Shown: piece by piece, positions 16,570 through 28,134 of the stretch
Position numbering within the stretch: the first letter of the stretch is position 1
Layout of the letters: each line of letters opens with the position of its first letter
Assembly: GCA_024275415.1 (NCBI GenBank)
Contig: JAJRZD010000030.1
Coordinates: 1 to 28,134 of the forward strand
Length of the DNA: 28,134 nucleotides
Origin: an archaeon
GTDB taxonomy: Archaea > Asgardarchaeota > Thorarchaeia > Thorarchaeales > Thorarchaeaceae
Reading direction: 5' to 3'
Program-made: the position numbers and the translations under genes
Notes under the pieces: model-generated
The model's input: only the letters and a program-made list of their open reading frames with translations
What the model was told of the DNA's origin: nothing
Databases searched by the model: none

Positions 16570-16665
16570 CTGAAAGCTTCTTTTACATAATAATGACGAT
16601 CTGATAAGGTCAGAGTATCTGGTTATAATTGAATGGGGTGAAAACTACTTCAATTCATCCATAAA

Positions 16666-18136
16666 CTTTCAATCTTCTTTCTTGAAGCTTAATCATTCCG
16701 GCGTGCCTAGTGTAGATCCAAGCAGGGATACTGCCTCAATCTTTCAATCTTCTTTCTTGAAGCTTAATCATTCCGGCGTCATTATACTTGTGTTGCTGGC
16801 TATGTGGATTGACAACACTTTCAATCTTCTTTCTTGAAGCTTAATCATTCCGGCGTTCGAGCGGTTCAGGTCTTTCATACTCGAGTTCGTCACTTTCAAT
16901 CTTCTTTCTTGAAGCTTAATCATTCCGGCTTGGATCTCCATCCTTACACCAGTCGGGTTGTCGAAGACTTTCAATCTTCTTTCTTGAAGCTTAATCATTC
17001 CGGCCTCAAGCGGACTTACTCCCACAGGACATGGCTACTGGACTTTCAATCTTCTTTCTTGAAGCTTAATCATTCCGGCCTTACGCTCGTAATTAACAAG
17101 TTGAGTCTGTGGAAAACACTTTCAATCTTCTTTCTTGAAGCTTAATCATTCCGGCTACTACTCGCCCAGTCACTGTCCCTCGCGATGGAATTCTCCTTTC
17201 AATCTTCTTTCTTGAAGCTTAATCATTCCGGCCATGTTCTGCTCGATGAAATAGAACCACTCCCGCTGGCTTTCAATCTTCTTTCTTGAAGCTTAATCAT
17301 TCCGGCGAAAATCAGTGCTAATCTGACCGGTCACGTCGCCTGAAGCCTTTCAATCTTCTTTCTTGAAGCTTAATCATTCCGGCCGCAACAGGATGTTCCT
17401 CCTGAGCGCTGAGGCGTCAGCCTTTCAATCTTCTTTCTTGAAGCTTAATCATTCCGGCTTTTGAAGGCTTAGTCGGTAATGATTTCCATGTCACGGCTTT
17501 CAATCTTCTTTCTTGAAGCTTAATCATTCCGGCACAGGAGATTAGTGATCACTCGCCCCACGGCCTCGACCCTTTCAATCTTCTTTCTTGAAGCTTAATC
17601 ATTCCGGCGATGTTGTTCTTGAAGTTACTCTCGACCCAATAGCGGTACTTTCAATCTTCTTTCTTGAAGCTTAATCATTCCGGCGAACATTAGACGAGCA
17701 CCTGCAAGTTGCTAGTAGTGAGTCCTTTCAATCTTCTTTCTTGAAGCTTAATCATTCCGGCAGTTACTCGCTTGAGAAGGCAATATACCAGATGGGCGTC
17801 TTTCAATCTTCTTTCTTGAAGCTTAATCATTCCGGCTAGGATCACTGACATAGTTCACTATTCCCAGCCCGTTGACTTTCAATCTTCTTTCTTGAAGCTT
17901 AATCATTCCGGCATCAGCGACTTCGACAAGTTCCTTGAGGAAGAACTGACTTTCAATCTTCTTTCTTGAAGCTTAATCATTCCGGCGCGGTGGGAATCCT
18001 GCATCAATTCAGATAGTACAAACCTTTCAATCTTCTTTCTTGAAGCTTAATCATTCCGGCATGTGTCTGTGTAACGACTGGTTCTTTTACGCTTTGACTC
18101 TTTCAATCTTCTTTCTTGAAGCTTAATCATTCCGGC
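16666..18136 (-). CRISPR. CRISPR array: 20 identical 37-nt repeats, 19 spacers of 37-40 nt
   Basis: Plus-strand repeat CTTTCAATCTTCTTTCTTGAAGCTTAATCATTCCGGC starts at 16666, 16741, 16818 ... 18024, 18100. On the minus strand it reads GCCGGAATGATTAAGCTTCAAGAAAGAAGATTGAAAG: a CTTC/GAAG stem followed by the canonical 8-nt ATTGAAAG handle, which gives the orientation. Confidence 0.99.
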
Positions 18137-18300
18137 CGCGTCAAAATAGTGGTTTTAAGATATAATACTTTACCTGTGAGAGGCGAAAGGCGAAAACTGT
18201 CGATTTTCATTTTTTTGGAGAGTAGTATATATAGGAAATCGCAAACGGAACGGAAAGATGGTGGCGTGAAATGGTCTAAAAGTACTTTCTTTGTCCTCTA
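18137..18300 (-). promoter_or_regulatory. Putative CRISPR leader/promoter
   Basis: Long AT-rich non-coding flank on the 5' side of the array (minus strand) with TATA-like CTATATATA (~18226-18234) and TATTATA (~18157-18163). The boundary is approximate. Confidence 0.7.
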
Positions 18301-18805: not shown

Positions 18806-19060
18806 TTGGAAATAAAGAAACGAGATGGCTCTCTCGAGGCGTTCATGCCTGAGAAGGTCGTTGTAAGCATTGTGAAGTCCGGTGCGCCTTACGAGGAAGC
18901 AAGAAGCATCGCAGAATCGCTATCCAAGCGTTCCGAGAGTACGATGGAAAGCTCCATGCTCAGAGATCATATTCATTCCGAGCTCAAGTCACGAGGGTTC
19001 ACCTCTGCTGTCGAGGAATGGAACAAGTACGAGCAATCGAAGCGTAGCAGCACATCATAG
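18806..19060 (+). CDS. Stand-alone ATP-cone domain protein (84 aa)
   Basis: IKKRDGSLEAFMPEKVVVSIVKSG ATP-cone signature. TTG start with GGAGG SD at 18793-18797 and TATA-like TTATATTA near 18743-18750. Confidence 0.85.
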   Translation: MEIKKRDGSLEAFMPEKVVVSIVKSGAPYEEARSIAESLSKRSESTMESSMLRDHIHSELKSRGFTSAVEEWNKYEQSKRSSTS

Positions 19061-19217
19061 TCTTCGATGAATATGCTTCTCAAGCGTACAGAGAAAGACA
19101 GAACCCTCAGGAGTCGAATAGTATTTCTGAGGGATATTTGTCTTTCCGGCCTTTTCATTCAGAACCAGTTCTGATTTAGAAATTCCCTGATTTTTCACAC
19201 AATGTCTGCAGATTCAG

Positions 19218-19257
19218 AAAAAATAAAAGCATCCGGAACCATGCAAAGCCCGGATGC
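19218..19257 (-). terminator. Hairpin plus U-tract terminator on the minus strand
   Basis: 8-bp stem GCATCCGG/CCGGATGC (19229-19236 and 19250-19257), followed on the minus strand by TTTTATTTTTT. Confidence 0.6.
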
Positions 19258-19332
19258 CCTTGTATGTAGACTAAGGGTAGGGTCCCGATTGATTCGGGAT
19301 CCCTGGCCACTGGTGTTTTTGGATGCCCGAAT

Positions 19333-19377
19333 CTAGAAGGGTGGAATTGGTGATGGATCGTCGGGCGGACGGTACAT
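19333..19377 (-). other. Mini-ORF MYRPPDDPSPIPPF (14 aa) with a perfect Shine-Dalgarno
   Basis: GGAGGTGAT (19391-19383), a 5-nt spacer, ATG and TAG. Translation is not demonstrated. Confidence 0.5.
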
Positions 19378-19530
19378 CAGTTATCACCTCCACCGATAGA
19401 GCGACCAGAAACTCCCTTAGCTAATTCATTCAGAATGAACTTCGATATGACCGCCCTGTATCGAAAAGAAAAAGGTATGAAGGGCGTTTTGAAAAGAGTA
19501 AGCAATCAGAACTCCTGAAAAAGAGTGTAA

Positions 19531-21015
19531 GTGATGATGCAACTCAACGATATCCTCGACCGAGTCCAGCAGAATAACCCTGAGAAGGTGGAACAGATCA
19601 GAAAGATTGCTGACGAGGTATCATCTATTCTAGAGGAATTGAACACAGCTCCAGGACTGATTGGATGGGATCTGATTCTGTTCAGGACAAAGCAACTTCT
19701 GCTGAGAGCAGGGATTTCGAATGATGATTTACAGATCTTAGACAGGGAATGGGCAAGAACAACAAAAAGCAGTGAACACAGACTGAACCTATTCTATGAT
19801 CCTCCGCGGGTGTACAACTCCTTGCTCCATGACTCGTCTGTGTTCGACAAGCTAGTCCGCGTACATGATGACTTAAGAGAGAGGGGAAGTACATCGTTCA
19901 GAGAAATCTACCTTGATGCATTCTTTGAGTTGAGAAAGCAGCTCAAGCCAACAATGACAAAGAAGGAGCTGGAAGTATTCAGAGAAACTATTCGGCAGCA
20001 GACCACATCGCCTTCGATACTTTCAGAGAAGATTGGGACTACGAAGGGATACGTTTCACGAGTAGTAAAGGGACTGCTTTCGAGGGGGTTGTTGTCAGAG
20101 GTAGTAAGGTTCTCGTATGGTGCATTGTCGCTAAAGGTAGTCATTGCGCTCGTCGAGATGGAGAGCCTCGATACAGAGCTGCCGGATTACCTGACAAGGA
20201 AGAACCCTTGGCTCTACAGTCTGTTTGACTGTAAATACGCAAATCGGGTTGTCATGGCGAACTTCATTGTTACGATGTCATGGCGTTCACGTGAGGAGAT
20301 GCAACAATGGAAGGAACAGCTGCTGTCATATCCCAGCGTGAAGGATGTCAAGTTAATCGAGCGTGACGAGAAGAAGTCATGGATGTCCTTCGACTATAGC
20401 AGGTTTGATGGAAAAGACTGGAATGTTATCCCGGGTGAGTTCGGAGTGCTGGTGAAATCAAGATTTAGAGAGCAGTCTGTGCCCTCCGGCATACGGGCTA
20501 CAGTCAGAAACTTGAGAGGGTTTAAGGTCACAAATATAGACGTGCAAATGATTGCCATACTGTATGAGAATGGGGCGCTATCTATCAGGGAAATAAGACA
20601 ACACATGGGGCTTGACTACAACACCGTGAGGAAAGCATACAATCGGCTGAAGGAAAGGGGCGTAATCTGGAACCGCATTCACCCGTCGCCATTGATTGCT
20701 CCAGAGAATATCACGCTCGTGGTAGAAGCTGACGAGGTATTGCATGCAAAGCTTTGCAGCGCATTCTCGATATGTCCAGAGGTGTATGCACAAAGAGGGA
20801 GTGGTGACTCCTCGATATTCATGCTGCGACTACCCGACGGTCATGGGATAAGTGTAGGAAGGACGCTGAACGAGATCCTCAGAGGGACAAGAAGAGTGCT
20901 TCTGCAATTCGGAGAGCATCATTTCACAAACTGGAAGTTTCCACTTGAGAGATGGGATGACCAGTACAAGGAGTTCAGGCTGGACTCTAACGATTTCGGA
21001 GGCGTAGATGGATGA
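19531..21015 (+). CDS. Transcriptional regulator with two tandem Lrp/AsnC-like wHTH modules and a ~140-aa helical N-terminal extension
   Basis: HTH1: MTKKELEVF...SPSILSEKIGTTKGYVSRVVKGLLSRGLL. HTH2: VTNIDVQMIAILYENGALSIREIRQHMGLDYNTVRKAYNRLKERGVI. Each is followed by a ferredoxin/RAM-like segment. Confidence 0.75.
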   Translation: MMMQLNDILDRVQQNNPEKVEQIRKIADEVSSILEELNTAPGLIGWDLILFRTKQLLLRAGISNDDLQILDREWARTTKSSEHRLNLFYDPPRVYNSLLHDSSVFDKLVRVHDDLRERGSTSFREIYLDAFFELRKQLKPTMTKKELEVFRETIRQQTTSPSILSEKIGTTKGYVSRVVKGLLSRGLLSEVVRFSYGALSLKVVIALVEMESLDTELPDYLTRKNPWLYSLFDCKYANRVVMANFIVTMSWRSREEMQQWKEQLLSYPSVKDVKLIERDEKKSWMSFDYSRFDGKDWNVIPGEFGVLVKSRFREQSVPSGIRATVRNLRGFKVTNIDVQMIAILYENGALSIREIRQHMGLDYNTVRKAYNRLKERGVIWNRIHPSPLIAPENITLVVEADEVLHAKLCSAFSICPEVYAQRGSGDSSIFMLRLPDGHGISVGRTLNEILRGTRRVLLQFGEHHFTNWKFPLERWDDQYKEFRLDSNDFGGVDG

Positions 21016-22430
21016 TTTTGCAGATGGTCTATTCATCAATCATGCCAATCCCAGAGATAGTCACAAAGAGAAACATGCTACGTAAAGAACTAGGATATCT
21101 TGGTGATAGGACAAGAGCATGGGAAAAGTTCGTTGAGGTGGTACGGAGCAGGAATGTTTTGAAGCATGACGCGTTCGTCAAGGACTTCTCATGTCTTAGA
21201 TGGAACCTTATCAGGGAAAACCTAGGACAATCCCTGCACCTGATCCGATTGGACAGGGAATACAGTATGCGTCTGCGTGTCCCATTGCCATTGAAAGCGA
21301 GCCGTAGCATCAGGCAGACTATCAACGGCACAATATACCCGACATACAGTGACATTCGGATATTCCCTTCGCTATTCGCAGAGTTCAGACAGAGGATCCT
21401 AGTAGCTGATCCCACAGTGTATGGACAGGATGAACGGCAGTTGGTCATAGCCCACATCCGCCAATCCAAGCGGGTAAGGAGGGATCTCTCACATGCACTT
21501 TTTGGGTCAGGGAACGTGATTGCCTCAGAATTCTCGATGCCCTTTCACATCAGGGTCACTCGGAATAGAGGCAGAGTATCTAAGCAGGTTTCGGGAGGTA
21601 AATACCCGACATTCATCGCTATGAATGATGGAAAGGTCACAATAAGCGGGAACAGCAAGGGAGGCTCTTTGCTCCTCTCACGCGTGTTGGAGGCAGTCGT
21701 CCTGGCCCTCGCTCAGAGGGTCACAGTCCCGAATCTCTGGAATCGGATACGTGACCTTGACACTGTCCCATCTTACGTACTCACTGAGATCTTTGAGACC
21801 TTATTTATTGCTCTCGCCCCAGAATACAATATCCACTCCAGAAGGGACACTCCTCATATCCTCAACCATCGATACCAGAGAAAAGCATTCGAGATGGTAG
21901 CAAAGTCGTTGGGACTGCAGGAGATGTTCGGGTCGATAACAAAAGAGTTCGTTGAGGTCATTCAAGGTTTCCCCGTGTTCAAGTTGACACCATTGCTACA
22001 GGTCTCGGAACCCTTGGCGTCAAAGACCAGAAGCACCATTAGGAGGTTCTCATCTTCCAGACCGGATCACGAACTGCAACCACCAGTTCGAACCGTCGTT
22101 GAGTTTTTGACTCGTGAGTTCTTGAAGGATAAAATGAGTTACGAGTACGGTTGGGGCGAGAGTCATCGCCCAATGGACCGATGGGGATTGAGAACCGCGA
22201 ACCAGGTATTGAAAGGAGTGAGAGCACTCGAGGATGAGAAGGGAATCAGCCCGCGTATCAAACAGGAGGAGATATATCACAGGAGCAACTCCATTCTCCA
22301 TCACTTGCACGGGTTAGGAATCGTCAGAACCGCAGAAACGAAACGAACTAGTGCCTCTATTGTTTACGGCATCAATCCGGATGATCCCACGGTAGAAAAG
22401 ATGATGCTATCTATCTCCATGACTACCTAG
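21012..22430 (+). CDS. Uncharacterised basic 472-aa protein, possible C-terminal winged helix
   Basis: Long clean ORF with an ATGA overlap with the upstream gene. The C-terminus (SILHHLHGLGIVRTAETKRTSASIVYGIN) resembles a wHTH wing. No family recognised. Confidence 0.75.
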   Translation: MILQMVYSSIMPIPEIVTKRNMLRKELGYLGDRTRAWEKFVEVVRSRNVLKHDAFVKDFSCLRWNLIRENLGQSLHLIRLDREYSMRLRVPLPLKASRSIRQTINGTIYPTYSDIRIFPSLFAEFRQRILVADPTVYGQDERQLVIAHIRQSKRVRRDLSHALFGSGNVIASEFSMPFHIRVTRNRGRVSKQVSGGKYPTFIAMNDGKVTISGNSKGGSLLLSRVLEAVVLALAQRVTVPNLWNRIRDLDTVPSYVLTEIFETLFIALAPEYNIHSRRDTPHILNHRYQRKAFEMVAKSLGLQEMFGSITKEFVEVIQGFPVFKLTPLLQVSEPLASKTRSTIRRFSSSRPDHELQPPVRTVVEFLTREFLKDKMSYEYGWGESHRPMDRWGLRTANQVLKGVRALEDEKGISPRIKQEEIYHRSNSILHHLHGLGIVRTAETKRTSASIVYGINPDDPTVEKMMLSISMTT

Positions 22431-22520: not shown

Positions 22521-22542
22521 TGTGTTGGGGGAGTGTCCATCA

Positions 22543-25188
22543 ATGAGCGTGTTTACAATCGAATCCCTAGAAAGAGTTGCCCGAGAAAGAGGATGGGACA
22601 GGCTACTTGCCAAATCGCCCCCCCAGGGCGAACAGAGTATCCTCTCCCACGCCAAGGCTGTGACTGGCATTGCCGAAACGGTTGGCGAGATGATAGGGCT
22701 TCCTAAGGAACTGATGGACATGCTTAGAGTGTCTGCATTTCTCCACGATATGGGCAAAGAGAAAGATGCATTTCAAAAGTCACTTGAAACAAAAGAGCGG
22801 ACAAAACATCTTCCCACATTGGATGAGATCAGAGATATCCTTCAATCTGAATATGGCATCCAAGACGAGTTTGTCACAAAGGTGTACTTTGTCATAATCG
22901 AAACCCATAGAGGACTTGGTGAAACAGAGACTGCAATGAGGGCAGTGAGTGAACTTGTGGATAGGGGGGAGACCCCCACCCTTATCGAACTGGGAGAGAT
23001 CGTCAGACTCTCGGACTGGATGGCATCAAGTGATTCTCCGGCATCGTTTTTCAAAAATCCAAGAGTTGTCGAATTCAAACCACTCCTAAGAGAGAACAGC
23101 ATCCACCTCGAATACTACAGCCTACTTCGAATACGGGGAGTTCTAACATATCTCCTCCATAGAGGAATTCAATCCACCTTCAAGAAAAAGGGGTATGAGA
23201 TATTGGCATCATACCCTGATGGATGTATCCTGATAGGGAAAGAACCACTTGACAAAGAGTGGTTCCAATCCGAAGTCAAGAAGCAGATAAAGAAAATACT
23301 TGACAAGGCACTCTTGGCTCCTGCATTCTTGGATAGTGCGATCTCACTCCAAATAAACAGAGGGATGATCGCAAACCCATCCATTGTCGCACTTAGTGCC
23401 CTGTCGAACCTTGTAGATTTTGGTATTGATAGGATACACTCCCTTGGTGGTAAGGATGATGACCAGAAACGAGCAATCCTGATGAGATACATCTCCACTC
23501 TCCAGAACGCGTTACGGACAAAAATTGAAGAGAAAGGTCTCGAGGTCCCGTCAGAACTTTCGGATATGGAGAAGGAGGTCTTCGGGATAGACTTTGGAGC
23601 GATTGGGCTGCCCATGGACTACGAACTCTGGAAAGGGCTTATCCAGAAAAGCTCCGCAATCCTAGTCAGGAACAAGACTGCTTCAAGAGACCTTGAAACC
23701 TTGGATATTACGAGTGGGCTGGCATCAATCAAGAAGGCTTACAAAGAATTGATAGACAAGATGAAAATTCTCTTCTCAGCAGATCAATTCAAGTTCATTG
23801 AAACGATGGAAACCGAGGGCCACCTGGAGGCACTGCTAAGAGATATAGGTCATCCTTCGATGCTTCAAAAAAAAGATGACATCGACTCCAACGAATATAC
23901 GACATTTGCACGTCACACTCTGGCGACCTACCAAAAAGCAAAGGAGCAGGTCATGGGAAAGATGACGGGGGACATCAGGTGTCCCATCTGCGGCTCTGCC
24001 GATACAGGCACGAAGGCAATATCAGCAGCAGTCGGCTCAGGAACCAAGAAATTCCTCAACAGCGGTATCGGAACCAAGAGGCTTGAGAACATCAATGTGT
24101 GCAACCTGTGCATCTTGGAAGGCATTTTGAGAGGTAACAAGGATCACGGATACGTACTCCTACCACAGACAGCATTCTCAGCACAAGAAGCGTATGCACT
24201 AGAACATATCGCTAAGAAATACCTTTCAAAACTTGATAGGAATGTCTTCAAGACGGCAGCTATGCTCTTGAGAGGGGAACTGGAAACAGTCGGAGCGACC
24301 CTACGTGACCGTCTATCAGCGATATGCTCTTCAGAAAGGGAATTCTACGACATCTCGGGAGATATCGTCGGAAATTATGTGCTGATGACCACCTTTGCAG
24401 AAAGGAAGGGGTCAGTATCTGACAACATGGCAAAAGCAGTATTTCAGGGTCTTATCTTGCATCATCTCATGGACGTTAGAGTGATGATCCTAACAGGGTT
24501 CGAGATGATTGATATCAACGATAGAAGAGGCGCTGTTCAGTTCCCAGGGACAAGCACATTACTTCGAGTTCTTCGGTCAAGGGAAAATAGGGTAGATTTT
24601 GCGAACACCAAAGTACTGGTTAGAAGACTTGCAGCAGCATTACTCGCAAAGTACAGCGCTAATCTGTCAGACAATAACGGCATTATCCAAGCATTGGATA
24701 CACATCCAGGTCAGATTGCACAGCGGATCGCGCTCGATAGGGATTCGGTAAAGTTGAGCGAACACGATTTACGAATTCTCAAAATTCTATATGAGGGATA
24801 TGACATGACAAGCATAACAGACATGACTGTTGAGATACTGGACAAATACTATCGTCCAGAGAAATATGGGAAGTCTATGCATTCCGTATTGGGGCCAATG
24901 AACTCGTTATATACTGAATTCAGGAAGGCATCGAAGTTAGATCAGGAGGCCATAGAGGCCATCGCAGGGAAAATGCATAGACAGCTCCAGCAATTGAACA
25001 AAGGAGACTACATGCTCGCAGAGGCAGCAGCGCCAATTCTAGAACTGTGCAAGGCGTTGGCTTCTCGACTTGAGGATGCAGGTCCTAGAGATCGCAAGAA
25101 GATTCTCGATGACCTACGATACTCGATCTATTTGAGACGATTGATTTCAATCAACGAGAAAATCGAAAAGAAGAAAGGAGGTAACTAA
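22543..25188 (+). CDS. cas10d: Type I-D large subunit Cas10d (Csc3) with N-terminal HD nuclease; start ATG 22543 preferred over GTG 22522
   Basis: HD motifs SILSH, LHDMGK, ETH, LSDWMAS; zinc finger CPIC...CNLC; helical C-terminus; directly upstream of csc2 and csc1. Confidence 0.9.
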   Translation: MSVFTIESLERVARERGWDRLLAKSPPQGEQSILSHAKAVTGIAETVGEMIGLPKELMDMLRVSAFLHDMGKEKDAFQKSLETKERTKHLPTLDEIRDILQSEYGIQDEFVTKVYFVIIETHRGLGETETAMRAVSELVDRGETPTLIELGEIVRLSDWMASSDSPASFFKNPRVVEFKPLLRENSIHLEYYSLLRIRGVLTYLLHRGIQSTFKKKGYEILASYPDGCILIGKEPLDKEWFQSEVKKQIKKILDKALLAPAFLDSAISLQINRGMIANPSIVALSALSNLVDFGIDRIHSLGGKDDDQKRAILMRYISTLQNALRTKIEEKGLEVPSELSDMEKEVFGIDFGAIGLPMDYELWKGLIQKSSAILVRNKTASRDLETLDITSGLASIKKAYKELIDKMKILFSADQFKFIETMETEGHLEALLRDIGHPSMLQKKDDIDSNEYTTFARHTLATYQKAKEQVMGKMTGDIRCPICGSADTGTKAISAAVGSGTKKFLNSGIGTKRLENINVCNLCILEGILRGNKDHGYVLLPQTAFSAQEAYALEHIAKKYLSKLDRNVFKTAAMLLRGELETVGATLRDRLSAICSSEREFYDISGDIVGNYVLMTTFAERKGSVSDNMAKAVFQGLILHHLMDVRVMILTGFEMIDINDRRGAVQFPGTSTLLRVLRSRENRVDFANTKVLVRRLAAALLAKYSANLSDNNGIIQALDTHPGQIAQRIALDRDSVKLSEHDLRILKILYEGYDMTSITDMTVEILDKYYRPEKYGKSMHSVLGPMNSLYTEFRKASKLDQEAIEAIAGKMHRQLQQLNKGDYMLAEAAAPILELCKALASRLEDAGPRDRKKILDDLRYSIYLRRLISINEKIEKKKGGN
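24805..25188 (+). CDS. cas11d: Putative internally translated small subunit Cas11d (127 aa)
   Basis: In-frame ATG 24805 with GAGGG 7 nt upstream, at the start of the C-terminal helical domain. Internal Cas11d translation is established for type I-D. Confidence 0.6.
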   Translation: MTSITDMTVEILDKYYRPEKYGKSMHSVLGPMNSLYTEFRKASKLDQEAIEAIAGKMHRQLQQLNKGDYMLAEAAAPILELCKALASRLEDAGPRDRKKILDDLRYSIYLRRLISINEKIEKKKGGN

Positions 25189-25189
25189 C

Positions 25190-26137
25190 ATGAAAATAGA
25201 CTTGCTAGATAGTGAATCGGAATGGTTCGTGAAAGAGCCATCACCACTTGCACCGGCAAAGTATGCAACCATAGGAGTTCTAAGAAGGACATTGGATTAC
25301 GCTGCATTCCGGACAGAGGCTGACAAATATACCAATAGTGTGGCGACGCCTGCTGGCCGAAAGACGCACGATGTCATCGAGCGGGCCCTTATTCTGGCCT
25401 CTAAGCAAAAAGCGGTTGAACGAAGGCAGCAGAACAAGTTAGTCCGAGACCTCTATCCAGATAATGAGTGTTATCTGAAGGACTATCTATGCTTGGAATG
25501 CCCAGTTTGTGCATTAAATGGGGGAATCAAGGCTGTGAAAGGCGCTGGAGATGTGTCAATAAAGTCACGGATACTCTACCAGACAGCATTCTCTGTGCTA
25601 CCTTTCGATCAGGTGGTTGAAAGCATTACTTTCAACGCGGTTGATGAGAGAACCACGAAGACTGACCAAGCACTGGGAGAGCGGGAATTGGTAAAGCCCG
25701 ACACGTACTTTGTGTCTACTGTATCAATCCTATCGCCTACTGTGGACGAGTTAAAGTTCTATCTCTATTCTCTCTTCAATACAACGCGATACGGTGCGGA
25801 AACAAGAGGGATAGGTGTGATCGAGAACAAATTGCTAGGCGTGGTGCTATCGGATACTGAGGAATTCTCAGCTCTTGGGGTCACAATGGACTTCTACGAT
25901 AACCTCATCGCAGAAAAAGAAAACCCCCAGATGAACTTTGTTTCAGCCTTAGATGTCTTTCATGATGTGTGCGTGGAATCGGTCTCTGGAAATGGGCAAC
26001 GAATCTACAAGAAGGACGAGGTCGTCCAGATTGAGAAGGATATTCGCAGTGCAGAAATCACGAAGAGCTGGCTTCAAGGAATGTTCAAGACCTCGAAGAA
26101 ATTCAAGGATGTCATAGCCGCAGATGCAAAGAAATGA
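25190..26137 (+). CDS. cas7: Type I-D backbone subunit Cas7 (Csc2)
   Basis: FRTE, ASKQKAVERR, CLECPVCALNG, KSRILYQTAFS, TFNAVDE and ELVKPDTYF match Csc2 motifs. Confidence 0.92.
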   Translation: MKIDLLDSESEWFVKEPSPLAPAKYATIGVLRRTLDYAAFRTEADKYTNSVATPAGRKTHDVIERALILASKQKAVERRQQNKLVRDLYPDNECYLKDYLCLECPVCALNGGIKAVKGAGDVSIKSRILYQTAFSVLPFDQVVESITFNAVDERTTKTDQALGERELVKPDTYFVSTVSILSPTVDELKFYLYSLFNTTRYGAETRGIGVIENKLLGVVLSDTEEFSALGVTMDFYDNLIAEKENPQMNFVSALDVFHDVCVESVSGNGQRIYKKDEVVQIEKDIRSAEITKSWLQGMFKTSKKFKDVIAADAKK

Positions 26138-26153
26138 CCGGGGAGGAACGTAC

Positions 26154-26828
26154 GTGACCTTTTCGCTCTACAGGTGTGAGCTGGTGCCAGAGGACTTCCT
26201 GTTCTTTGTTTCGCGGGAGTTCAATACATATACTCAGGTACAACCTCACATCCATAACTACGCGCTAAGCTATGCGATTGCAAGGAGGTTCACGGTGGGT
26301 TCACTGGGGACAACGCCGAATTACTCCGAACTAACGGACTTTGACCTGTATGCCACACCTGCACTTCCCACAAGCACACCTAGCTACGTCACCCATACAT
26401 ACAACTCGATCTGTTCTAGAACCAACATTACTCAGTCCGGCTACAATGTGCCTGCTCTAGGACGGATTTCAAAGATATCTCCAGTTTCCACTCCATTCGA
26501 GTTCCTTGTTTTTGCAACATCGGAGAGGAAACCTCCCAAGTACATCCGAGTGGGAAAGAAATCATGCATCTGTAGGGTGAGTCATCAGGAAATGGAGATT
26601 GAAGATGTGATATCACAACCAGAAGAGGTAGTGACAGTGGACTATTGCTTCAACCTCCTTGACTTGTCAGTGAATGACATCGTGGAATCGGCAGATATGA
26701 TCATGACATATCCGTCGCCAATCGCACGAACCATGACTGTGAAAGCACCGCATATCGTAGTCAGAATCAACGATGAAACTACGGCATTACCAATACCAAG
26801 ACATCTTCGGACTTTGGAGGATTTGTGA
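26154..26828 (+). CDS. cas5: Type I-D Cas5 (Csc1); GTG 26154 with GGGAGG SD is the likely start
   Basis: FFVSRE...IHNYALSYA, LYATPA, YIRVGKK motifs of Csc1. Confidence 0.9.
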   Translation: MTFSLYRCELVPEDFLFFVSREFNTYTQVQPHIHNYALSYAIARRFTVGSLGTTPNYSELTDFDLYATPALPTSTPSYVTHTYNSICSRTNITQSGYNVPALGRISKISPVSTPFEFLVFATSERKPPKYIRVGKKSCICRVSHQEMEIEDVISQPEEVVTVDYCFNLLDLSVNDIVESADMIMTYPSPIARTMTVKAPHIVVRINDETTALPIPRHLRTLEDL

Positions 26829-28134
26829 TGACACAATCCCCAATCTATTCGATTCCCGAAACAATGCTTCGAGTGTCGGAGGAGGAGAGGGGGTCATTAC
26901 GTCTTCGCGATTTCCAGGCCAACGCGATCGAAACCCTTAGAGCGAAGAAGAAATGCATGTTAGAGATACATGCTGGGACAGGGATGGGCAAGACTGCTGT
27001 TGCAGTGATTGCAGGACTCGAAGGAGCGTCACCAATCTCCCTGTTGGTATACCCTACCAATGAACTCGTTGAGAACCAGAAGAAAAGCATCGCAAAGACC
27101 TGTAAGGCGCTGCGTGTCAACGACTATAAGATCGAGGTAGTGCACGCATCGGAGCTAATGGATCTGATGTACCAAGAAGGATACACCAGCAAAAGTCAGG
27201 CACTCCACGACAAGTTGTACCCGAGCAAGTCTCCAAAATTCGTCTTGACGAACCCGGACACTCTGCACTTGATACTTCGTCTTCGGTATGGTGGAGAAGC
27301 ACGGTGGGGGCAAAAAGCAGCTCAAGTCCTGAAACACCTCGTGACCTATTCCACGTTAGTCTTGGACGAGTTTCATACCTATGAAAGGAGAGAGCTGGCA
27401 CAGATATACTATGACATCGCACTTGCTCAGTACTTGGGAGCGTTTGATAGGGTATTGCTGATGACTGCAACGCCCAGTCCCGAGATTGATAAGCGTTTGA
27501 GTACATTAGCGCAGGTCGCTCAGTTGGAAAGGCCGCAACCCATCCAAGCCAAGCCCACAAAAGATGGGGCTGTAGTTGCCCACGAGCTCGAGTTCTCTAT
27601 CATTTCTAAGGGAACCGATGACATAGAAGCGTTTGAGAATATGCTCAAGGAGATGAAGGACGAACTGATATCGCTGCGTCAGGCGAATCAGGCTATAGAT
27701 TACATCCCCGCATGCGTGATATTGAACTCGGTGATTCAAGCGAGGGCATTGACAGAGCGACTACTAGAGAGCTTTGATGTACATGAGATAAAAGAGAGTC
27801 ACGGACTTGTACCACAGAGAGAACGGCAGATAGAGAGCGACACACTGGTTCTTGTGGGAACGAGCAGCATCGAAGTAGGAATCGATTTTGACACATCGTA
27901 CCTCTTCTTTGAGGCGGATCAGGGAGCCTCCGCAATTCAACGTATGGGGAGGGCTGGGAGGCACCGTCCAGGAAAAGCGATATTGTTAGCACCAGAGTTT
28001 GTATTCAACTACTTTCAACAATATGTTAATACGATCGATTCAAGAGAAACATTATCAAAGCACCTGATAGAAGCCTATGGTGAAAAAGACTCTGGGCTAT
28101 GGTACCTGCAATCGCCAATGGCAGTGAAAGAAAC
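26828..28134 (+). CDS. cas3: Cas3' SF2 helicase without HD domain; truncated by the window end and absent from the ORF track
   Basis: My translation from ATG 26828 (TGATG overlap with csc1): LRDFQ, AGTGMGKT (Walker A), YPTNEL, TNPD, LDEFH, MTATP, VGTSSIEVGIDF, QRMGRAGR. No stop before 28134. Confidence 0.95.
   Translation, partial: MTQSPIYSIPETMLRVSEEERGSLRLRDFQANAIETLRAKKKCMLEIHAGTGMGKTAVAVIAGLEGASPISLLVYPTNELVENQKKSIAKTCKALRVNDYKIEVVHASELMDLMYQEGYTSKSQALHDKLYPSKSPKFVLTNPDTLHLILRLRYGGEARWGQKAAQVLKHLVTYSTLVLDEFHTYERRELAQIYYDIALAQYLGAFDRVLLMTATPSPEIDKRLSTLAQVAQLERPQPIQAKPTKDGAVVAHELEFSIISKGTDDIEAFENMLKEMKDELISLRQANQAIDYIPACVILNSVIQARALTERLLESFDVHEIKESHGLVPQRERQIESDTLVLVGTSSIEVGIDFDTSYLFFEADQGASAIQRMGRAGRHRPGKAILLAPEFVFNYFQQYVNTIDSRETLSKHLIEAYGEKDSGLWYLQSPMAVKE

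Follow-up and report, generated by a model that had tools for sequence, protein, structure and literature searches.

The minus strand of the analyzed DNA contains a self-contained small gene of ~200 bases, located at about positions 19218-19426. This DNA, herein referred to as the window, is a 28,134-nucleotide stretch of a genome belonging to the Thorarchaeaceae. The small gene, herein referred to as the cassette, is an independent gene with a promoter, a ~45-nt leader, a 9-nt Shine-Dalgarno (SD) sequence, a 14-codon ORF, two structured hairpins, and a terminator. The gene is conserved in other Asgard genomes, its short ORF is under coding selection, its RNA structure covaries, and its synteny is kept. 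Comparative analysis suggests that the cassette may encode a ribosome-stalling mini-ORF RNA acting like a proline-codon CreT, with transcription governed by the products of two neighboring genes, reg494 and/or unk472. This is the reading favored here, tentatively and at somewhat less than an even chance.

Every element described in an earlier sequence-only reading of this DNA was re-read base for base on the minus strand, and all of them are present. The features of the cassette are as follows:

19443..19450, minus strand: TATA-like element TCATATCG, predicted for the cassette promoter
19408..19426, minus strand: conserved block AATTAGCTAAGGGAGTTTC with the palindrome TTAGCTAA, from the alignment across loci
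19391-19383, minus strand: SD sequence GGAGGTGAT, 5-nt spacer before the start codon
19377-19333, minus strand: mini-ORF MYRPPDDPSPIPPF, 14 codons, ATG at 19377-19375 and TAG at 19335-19333
19328-19321 and 19259-19252, minus strand: two occurrences of GGGCATCC, read from the sequence
19303-19280, minus strand: hairpin H1, GGG(A)TCCCGA / ATCAA / TCGGGACCC, 9-bp stem, loop AUCAA
19257-19277, minus strand: hairpin H2, CCCUU / AAGGG, 2 of 5 pairs compensatory
19257-19229, minus strand: terminator, 8-bp hairpin GCATCCGG...CCGGATGC (RNA GCAUCCGG / CCGGAUGC), then a U-tract
19228-19218, minus strand: U-tract TTTTATTTTTT after the terminator hairpin, read from the sequence

The proline-rich mini-ORF after the SD, the hairpin at 19280-19303, and the 8-bp hairpin with its U-tract were all confirmed at the places reported earlier, and the combination of SD, mini-ORF, hairpin, and terminator is a real unit that recurs in many Asgard genomes. 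The repetition of GGGCATCC was also confirmed, but the alternative pairings proposed for it are not kept between homologues. The window's own genome contains one copy of the cassette.

The SD GGAGGTGAT is a perfect 9-nt complement of the 16S rRNA tail ...GGAUCACCUCCU. The tail was read in the genomes G045, belonging to the same family, and G152; the metagenome-assembled genome (MAG) of the window itself has no 16S end. The earlier claim of a complete and exceptionally strong SD was borne out by the genome-wide count: matches of at least 8 nt were found in only 8 of 1779 long ORFs of this genome, and a 9-nt match in one, and the cassette SD is within the top 0.5% by strength. About 60% of the long ORFs in the whole genome (G000) have an SD match of at least 4 nt, and this Thorarchaeon uses mostly short SDs. 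The extended words GGAGGTGA and GGAGGTGAT occur genome-wide (G000) at the frequency expected from base composition. Since the long SD word is not enriched, such an SD in a single genome could be due to chance; the recurrence of cassettes with equivalent parts across numerous other Asgard genomes argues for more than chance. Most homologues that were read have GGAGGTGA or a near variant 3-9 nt upstream of the start codon, and AAGGTGA occupies the SD position in the cassettes of G025.

The block AATTAGCTAAGGGAGTTTC is conserved 20-45 nt upstream of the SD in seven of the eight loci linked to reg494, and is unique in the window's own genome. Transcription probably starts in or near this block, which is also a candidate operator. 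TCATATCG is a putative TATA-like element of the cassette promoter. AT-rich TATA-like words were found ~25 nt upstream of the block in G016, G017, G041, and G014 (alignment A6), and the equivalent place in the G025 copies is occupied by ATAAATAG / ATAAATAGGAAAGTTTG. A possible second operator-like site, found in contig C32, falls within a coding sequence and was judged a chance occurrence.

In total, ~19 homologous cassettes were found in at least 14 Asgard genomes belonging to five families and two orders, using BLAST, a back-translated pattern, and a covariance model (R1). The arrangement of SD, ORF, and hairpin, whose conservation the sequence-only reading had proposed to check, is kept in these ~19 cassettes. 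The genomes G152, G028, G210, and G216 belong to another order than the window. The mini-ORF peptides are as follows:

G014: MQRPPDDPFPIPPWD
G017: YHPPDDPHPIPPW (TTG start)
G021: MVSCPPNDPMPIPPW
G016: MHNPPGDPSPVPPWC
G006: MALSSPPGDPHPIPPW
G010: VNPGDPWPIPPWRPA
G044: VTANPGDPYPIPPWVPDGPRA
G025: MYSPPNDPPDFPW (another family, three copies)
G152: MLAPDLPDDPDPFPP
G028: VSGPPVWPPNDPEPWPP
G210: VSGPPVWPPNDPAPWPP and VNGPPVWPPNDPAPWPP (two copies)
G216: MFYPPEDPDEPEFWPP
G029: ...WPPDDPHPLPWDG
G174: MYNPIDDPFPW

A weaker candidate was found in G055, and BLAST-level matches in G065, G057, G067, and G068 were dropped as lying inside coding sequence. Exhaustive exact-pattern scans with the back-translated peptide core in genome, metagenome, and viral collections found nothing outside Asgard archaea. 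The genome and metagenome scan yielded Thorarchaeia copies and chance matches inside long ORFs of unrelated bacteria; no homologue was found in the viral contig collection. In one IMG/VR viral contig (L110:2915-2975, minus strand), GGAGGTGA is followed by a 16-codon ORF, MADKPDDPKPPPPPPG, just past a gene end; with PDDP and then polyproline, this ORF has a similar flavor, its homology to the cassette not being evident.

For the analysis of codons, the 11-codon core was aligned among six Thorarchaeaceae genera and the free x position was left out. Third positions vary in 10 of 10 cases and first and second positions in 6 of 20 (Fisher p = 3e-4); pairwise codon differences in the core comprise 78 synonymous and 40 non-synonymous ones. 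These alignments indicate that the mini-ORF is coding and that selection acts on the peptide level. The peptide core is (P)P-[DNG]-D-P-x-P-hydrophobic-P-P-(W/F or stop). Its 11 residues are kept across families, well beyond two prolines: conservation also covers D-P, the hydrophobic position, and the W or F at the end. ORFs are 13-25 codons long. The end is PPW in G006, G010, G014, G016, G017, G021, and G044, and PPF in the window; thus, the window has PP-F-stop, most Thorarchaeaceae have PP-W-stop, and G152, G028, G210, and G216 have PP-stop. The window peptide is acidic and proline-rich, and the mini-ORF peptide does not match the hydrophobic transmembrane peptides of type I toxin-antitoxin systems. 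Proline codon usage, another point the earlier reading had marked for checking, revealed no rare codon: all four codons are interchangeable among homologues, and each accounts for 16-32% of the Pro codons here. A rare-tRNA mechanism is therefore unsupported. ARAGORN detected only 16 tRNAs in the window's MAG, with no Pro tRNA among them.

The 181-nt RNA folds better than its shuffles (z = -3.4). In H1, 6 of 9 pairs are changed on both sides with pairing kept among five genera. H2 has its two compensatory pairs in G016 and G017, as CCCUC / GAGGG. For H1/H2, 91% of cells are paired, vs 23-59% with the partner slid, and the observed covariation values were reached by 0-1 of 500 shuffles. By these measures, the two downstream hairpins covary. 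The terminator, a hairpin with a T-run, is located in the same place in every homologue and differs in sequence; the other families have different hairpins, again without exception and with a T-run behind them. Some bases of the 3' domain are conserved although unpaired, among them the AUCAA loop, UACCCUYAG, and GGGCRUCC, and within Thorarchaeaceae the conservation includes the loops and flanks of H1/H2. No Rfam covariance model matched the cassette at its gathering score, and only chance-level matches were found at E up to 10.

Several further pairings were found in single genomes. In G017, the H2 arm GAGGG has two possible partners, CCCUC on its upstream side and the terminator arm on its downstream side; these terminator/antiterminator pairings are mutually exclusive in G017 and overlap by only 1-3 nt in the window and G014. 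The pairing of the 5' block CUAAGGG with CCCUUAG of the 3' domain is perfect in the window but is not kept in G016 or G017, and was rejected. In the minimum-free-energy fold, the SD pairs with AUCACC...CCACC inside the mini-ORF (19340-19394, minus strand), whereas the SD of G014 might be paired by a CCACCUC upstream of it; SD sequestration is thus possible, but its form is not conserved. In G016 (L054:12220-12316), an insertion of ~100 nt separates the mini-ORF stop from hairpin H1, so the ORF-hairpin spacing is not critical, as was likewise reported for a Pseudomonas aeruginosa toxin (bioRxiv 10.64898/2026.06.02.729485).

The genes divergent from the cassette in the window are the following:

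19534..21015, plus strand: reg494, a 494-aa protein with two winged helix-turn-helix domains (Pfam MarR_2 / HTH_24, PADLOC Csa3/CasR HTH)
21012..22430, plus strand: unk472, a 472-aa protein outside any known family, winged helix at the C-terminus, start overlapping the reg494 stop
22522..28132, plus strand: cas10d, csc2, csc1, and cas3', the type I-D effector (Pfam HD, Csc2, Cas3 helicase)

Both the reg494-unk472 operon and the cas10d-csc2-csc1-cas3' genes are oriented away from the cassette. Within the class, the cassette is located divergently upstream of reg494 in seven of nine close orthologues; the remaining two are represented by a contig end inside the promoter block and a cassette-less paralogue. 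In another order, the cassette of G216 has a reg494 homologue (Prob 99.7) on its divergent side, and an unk472 homologue comes next. Further homologues of unk472 are the opening gene of a different type I operon, cas7-cas5-cas3, in G152/G028 (hhalign Prob 97.7, E = 1.8e-12), and an ORF beside the G210 cassette (hhalign Prob 100). By these comparisons, the triad of cassette, reg494, and unk472 is conserved across two orders. Members of the unk472 family at the head of the cas7-cas5-cas3 operon in that order are located at L068:8160-9620 and L069:16489-17937, both on the minus strand. The AF2 model of unk472 is mediocre (pLDDT 59.8), with only the C-terminal winged helix recognizable, and a Foldseek search of the PDB with this model gave no match at E of 0.001 or better. 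An ESM Atlas hint of MAD7/DptG had low recognition and was not relied on. A related-locus search with reg494 found nothing, and a word-based protein search with unk472 retrieved only itself.

The operons that begin with the triad are of type I-D in the window, G014, G016, and G017, and of another type I in G152. The triad is also present in G010, G044, and G216, where no cas gene was found in the ~5-8 kb read downstream of the pair. Other cassettes are located by a type III-D operon (G021), a Csa3-like regulator (G029), or a CARF protein (G152), and cas3 adjoins the cassettes in G028 and G210. Thus, the cassette lies inside or beside a CRISPR-Cas locus in the window and most homologues, the exceptions being G010, G044, G216, and the three copies in G025; neither these copies nor the G055 candidate have cas genes nearby. 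The G025 copies (L055:7950-8084, L056:9914-10085, and L057:3759-3903) are near-identical and shorter (~150 nt from promoter to terminator), and are found in housekeeping surroundings with no partner genes nearby. One of them is adjacent to an FKBP-type peptidyl-prolyl isomerase, and the weak G055 candidate to an Xaa-Pro-dipeptidase-like amidohydrolase; both neighborhoods are possibly coincidental.

These loci bear out the tie to cas loci stated in the sequence-only reading, and homologous cassettes were found beside other I-D loci (G014, G016, and G017), where that reading had suggested looking for them. Its proposal of a safeguard for a type I-D locus fares less well, as the link is not I-D specific. 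Judged from gene order, the constant neighbor of the cassette is the pair of the 494-aa and 472-aa proteins, and neither the CRISPR array nor the I-D genes.

On the other side of the cassette, the window contains the following:

16665..18136, minus strand: CRISPR array, 20 repeats of 37 nt, own leader
18806-19060, plus strand: 84-aa ORF with an ATP-cone-like domain only; own terminator at 19104-19133, pointing toward the cassette

The array would be transcribed on the minus strand, as its minus strand ends in ATTGAAAG; its leader has TATATATA near 18230. The ATP-cone ORF, located between the array leader and the cassette, has a weak match to the N-terminus of ribonucleoside triphosphate reductase. 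In G014 (L011:14242-14974), the array is inverted relative to the window, G016, and G017, and its cassette-proximal repeat is degenerate (GTTTCAAT...).

One earlier suggestion was a proline-stalling leader peptide that attenuates read-through into the array. In the window, G016, and G017, the array does follow the cassette on its strand. However, the two are 500-1080 nt apart, the convergent ATP-cone gene with its own terminator intervenes in the window, and the array has its own TATA-bearing leader. Moreover, G014 has an inverted array, in G028 the array is upstream, G010 and G216 have none, and no downstream gene on the same strand is conserved, the content differing in every lineage. The attenuator is largely refuted by this synteny and was rejected, being scarcely credible.

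The comparison with CreTA systems is more equivocal. The predicted cassette RNA has the creT features, namely a strong SD, a mini-ORF, and a stable hairpin, on one short transcript, and it is located in cas loci, so the likeness to CreT proposed earlier stands for the toxin half; the antitoxin half, a CreA and its target, was not found. In a canonical CreTA, the creT promoter would be repressed by Cascade guided by a CreA crRNA-like RNA, and mini-array-regulated cargo upstream of cas10d is known in type I-D loci (bioRxiv 10.1101/2023.03.03.530964). On the other hand, the best local alignments to a CreA-like repeat in the array-regulator intergenic regions of three loci are at shuffle level. 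No repeat copies with at least 21 of 37 identical bases exceed the null in four I-D loci, a threshold that strongly degenerated repeats could escape. Words of at least 12 nt common to the cassette promoter and the spacers or the rest of eight loci are at chance level only, interrupted matches not being excluded by this comparison. Additionally, the stretches read around some cassettes lack cas genes, and a type III locus adjoins another. With no CreA-like degenerate repeat or spacer target found, the cassette is not a demonstrable CreTA, and the canonical form is very improbable.

The statement that known CreTs use only rare Arg or Ile codons is superseded, as a proline-codon CreT was reported in June 2026 (bioRxiv 10.64898/2026.06.02.729485). 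This CreT, from a P. aeruginosa type I-F locus, consists of an SD, an M-x-P-P-stop ORF, and a hairpin. To be toxic, it must have the SD, a pair of consecutive Pro codons (any synonym will do), and the structure, not the sequence, of the hairpin (bioRxiv 10.64898/2026.06.02.729485). The functional analogy with CreT is therefore closer than was assumed.

Strong stall motifs include PPD, PPN, PPG, PPW, DDP, and D-x-x with Pro; termination, too, is helped by eIF5A (PMC5499558). In the AZIN1 uCC, PPW serves as the pause motif that senses polyamines and eIF5A (PMC8705083). Mini-ORFs of the cassette family have PPD, PPN, or PPG as their first motif, then D-P, and they end in PPW, PPF, or PP-stop; the varying residues stay within the published strong-staller set. 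The mini-ORF can be read as a putative chain of the strongest EF-P/eIF5A-dependent stall motifs (PPD, PPN, PPG, DDP, PPW, and PP-stop). Variation confined to this set would be expected if the frame were kept for its effect on the ribosome.

For the favored stalling toxin, we infer stalling, toxicity, and repression by reg494. The strong SD would cause heavy ribosome loading on the mini-ORF, the proline motifs adjoining the stop codon would make the ribosomes pause or arrest, and the downstream hairpins would protect the cassette RNA. At a high RNA level, ribosomes, and perhaps aIF5A, would be tied up and growth would be slowed. Repression would probably be exerted by reg494, possibly with unk472, at the conserved start-site block. 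The reg494-unk472 operon also heads the cas operon; its loss or inhibition would release the RNA, and the module would serve as an addiction or abortive switch.

This reading is supported by the presence in the cassette of the SD, consecutive Pro codons, and hairpin of the P. aeruginosa toxin, and by PP-stop ends in the order of G152, exactly as in that toxin. It is also supported by peptide-level selection combined with no dependence on one Pro codon or tRNA; by the SD strength, H1/H2 covariation, reg494 synteny, and common promoter block; and by ~19 homologues, with the triad recurring in a second order and heading cas operons. The further cassettes beside the type III-D operon, the Csa3-like regulator, the CARF protein, and cas3 point the same way. 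Against it stand the lack of any CreA-like repeat or target in the loci searched, the triad with no cas gene in the G010, G044, and G216 stretches, and the conservation of H1/H2 loop and flank bases, which a mere stability hairpin would not need. The triplicate of G025, in housekeeping surroundings with no partner genes, would be awkward for an unrepressed toxin. The peptide is kept beyond two prolines, which could mean a functional peptide. Finally, aIF5A normally relieves proline-type stalls, and this also speaks against the stalling toxin.

Some of these difficulties suit other explanations better. A non-toxic sensor of the translation state, in which the supply of aIF5A/hypusine, polyamine, or prolyl-tRNA is read out through ribosome pausing on the mini-ORF, is unlikely. 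The pause would alter the fold, stability, or termination of the small RNA, and the 3' domain would act on partner proteins or other RNAs, tuning the module and the cas operon. The known role of PPW as a polyamine/eIF5A pause motif in the AZIN1 uCC (PMC8705083), the conserved unpaired bases of the 3' domain, the two alternative partners of the G017 H2 arm, and the multiple copies in G025, which suit a regulatory RNA better than a toxin, all favor such a sensor. However, the alternative pairings are not conserved between homologues, the 3' domain is wholly different between families, no conserved gene follows on the same strand, and no target was identified. The RNA could instead be the mRNA for a functional acidic proline-rich micropeptide of 13-25 aa, for example, a ligand of reg494/unk472 or Cas; this is about as unlikely as the sensor. 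The amino acids are conserved across orders, with a fixed P-[DNG]-D-P-x-P-hydrophobic-P-P, and the ORF co-occurs tightly with two proteins of unknown ligand. In contrast, the variation stays within stall motifs and not within any known binding motif, and the C-terminus varies among PPW-stop, PP-stop, and extended tails.

A wider proposal, speculative and doubtful, unites some of these elements in a three-part module spread throughout the Asgard phylum. Here, an a/eIF5A-dependent arrest-peptide RNA (PPD...PPW or PP-stop) would couple the translation state to the two winged-helix proteins at the head of CRISPR-Cas operons and form a guard or abortive switch against viruses, a counterpart of the eukaryotic PPW/eIF5A sensors. 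Viruses would trip the switch by disturbing translation or cas expression. If the three-part module is true, a prokaryotic counterpart of PPW/eIF5A pausing sensors would exist in the closest relatives of eukaryotes.

A literature search for a description of the cassette found none. To date, mini-ORF RNA toxins are established for type I-B loci of haloarchaea and type I-F loci of bacteria, and the proline-codon toxin class was described as specific to P. aeruginosa. If the stalling toxin is real, the mini-ORF toxin principle would reach a new domain-level lineage with new partners. Protein regulators would take the place of a crRNA-like antitoxin, and the proline-stall mini-gene would be far more elaborate. 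The 494-aa/472-aa pair heading Asgard type I cas operons would gain a testable role, and the cassette would be a compact, naturally occurring reporter for studying how stalling on a eukaryote-like ribosome depends on aIF5A. Additionally, translated frames of 13-15 codons are recognizable from sequence alone, given enough relatives.

Among known systems, Salmonella mgtL-type leaders contain a short proline-rich ORF 5' of the regulated gene, and its translation speed is read via RNA structure. The cassette likewise combines a short proline-rich ORF with RNA structure but has no conserved downstream gene. A similar distinction applies to the AZIN1/ODC uCC, an eIF5A-dependent translated region in which ribosome queuing controls the main ORF on the same mRNA (Ivanov et al. 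2018, via PMC8705083). Its PPW element (PMC8705083) resembles the cassette as a short conserved coding region with a PPW-type end, whereas the cassette has no main ORF downstream and is terminated within ~110 nt. The type I-D cargo located upstream of cas10d includes toxin-antitoxin pairs and regulators (bioRxiv 10.1101/2023.03.03.530964). In the window, extra genes, including regulators, are also found just upstream of cas10d; in contrast to that mini-array-regulated cargo, no mini-array was detected, and the cargo consists of the cassette, reg494, and unk472.

The haloarchaeal CreTs of Haloarcula hispanica (Arg-AGA) and Halobacterium hubeiense (Ile-AUA) sequester a rare tRNA via rare codons (PMC8501985). 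They share with the cassette an archaeal host and an SD, a mini-ORF, and a stem-loop within a type I cas locus; unlike them, the cassette has no rare codon, a freely drifting codon choice, and no CreA. The P. aeruginosa proline-codon CreT differs from the cassette in several respects. Its ORF is M-x-P-P-stop, in which only the prolines matter, whereas the cassette ORF has 13-25 codons with a conserved peptide, and its 11-residue core is kept across families. The cassette has a winged-helix protein pair instead of a CreA or PAM-flanked target, belongs to archaeal hosts with a eukaryote-like ribosome and aIF5A, and is also found with no cas genes nearby. The P. aeruginosa RNA is toxic, whereas toxicity of the cassette RNA is a prediction. 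Nevertheless, both are small RNA genes in a cas locus with a canonical strong SD, consecutive prolines at or next to the stop codon, interchangeable synonymous Pro codons, and a stable downstream hairpin.
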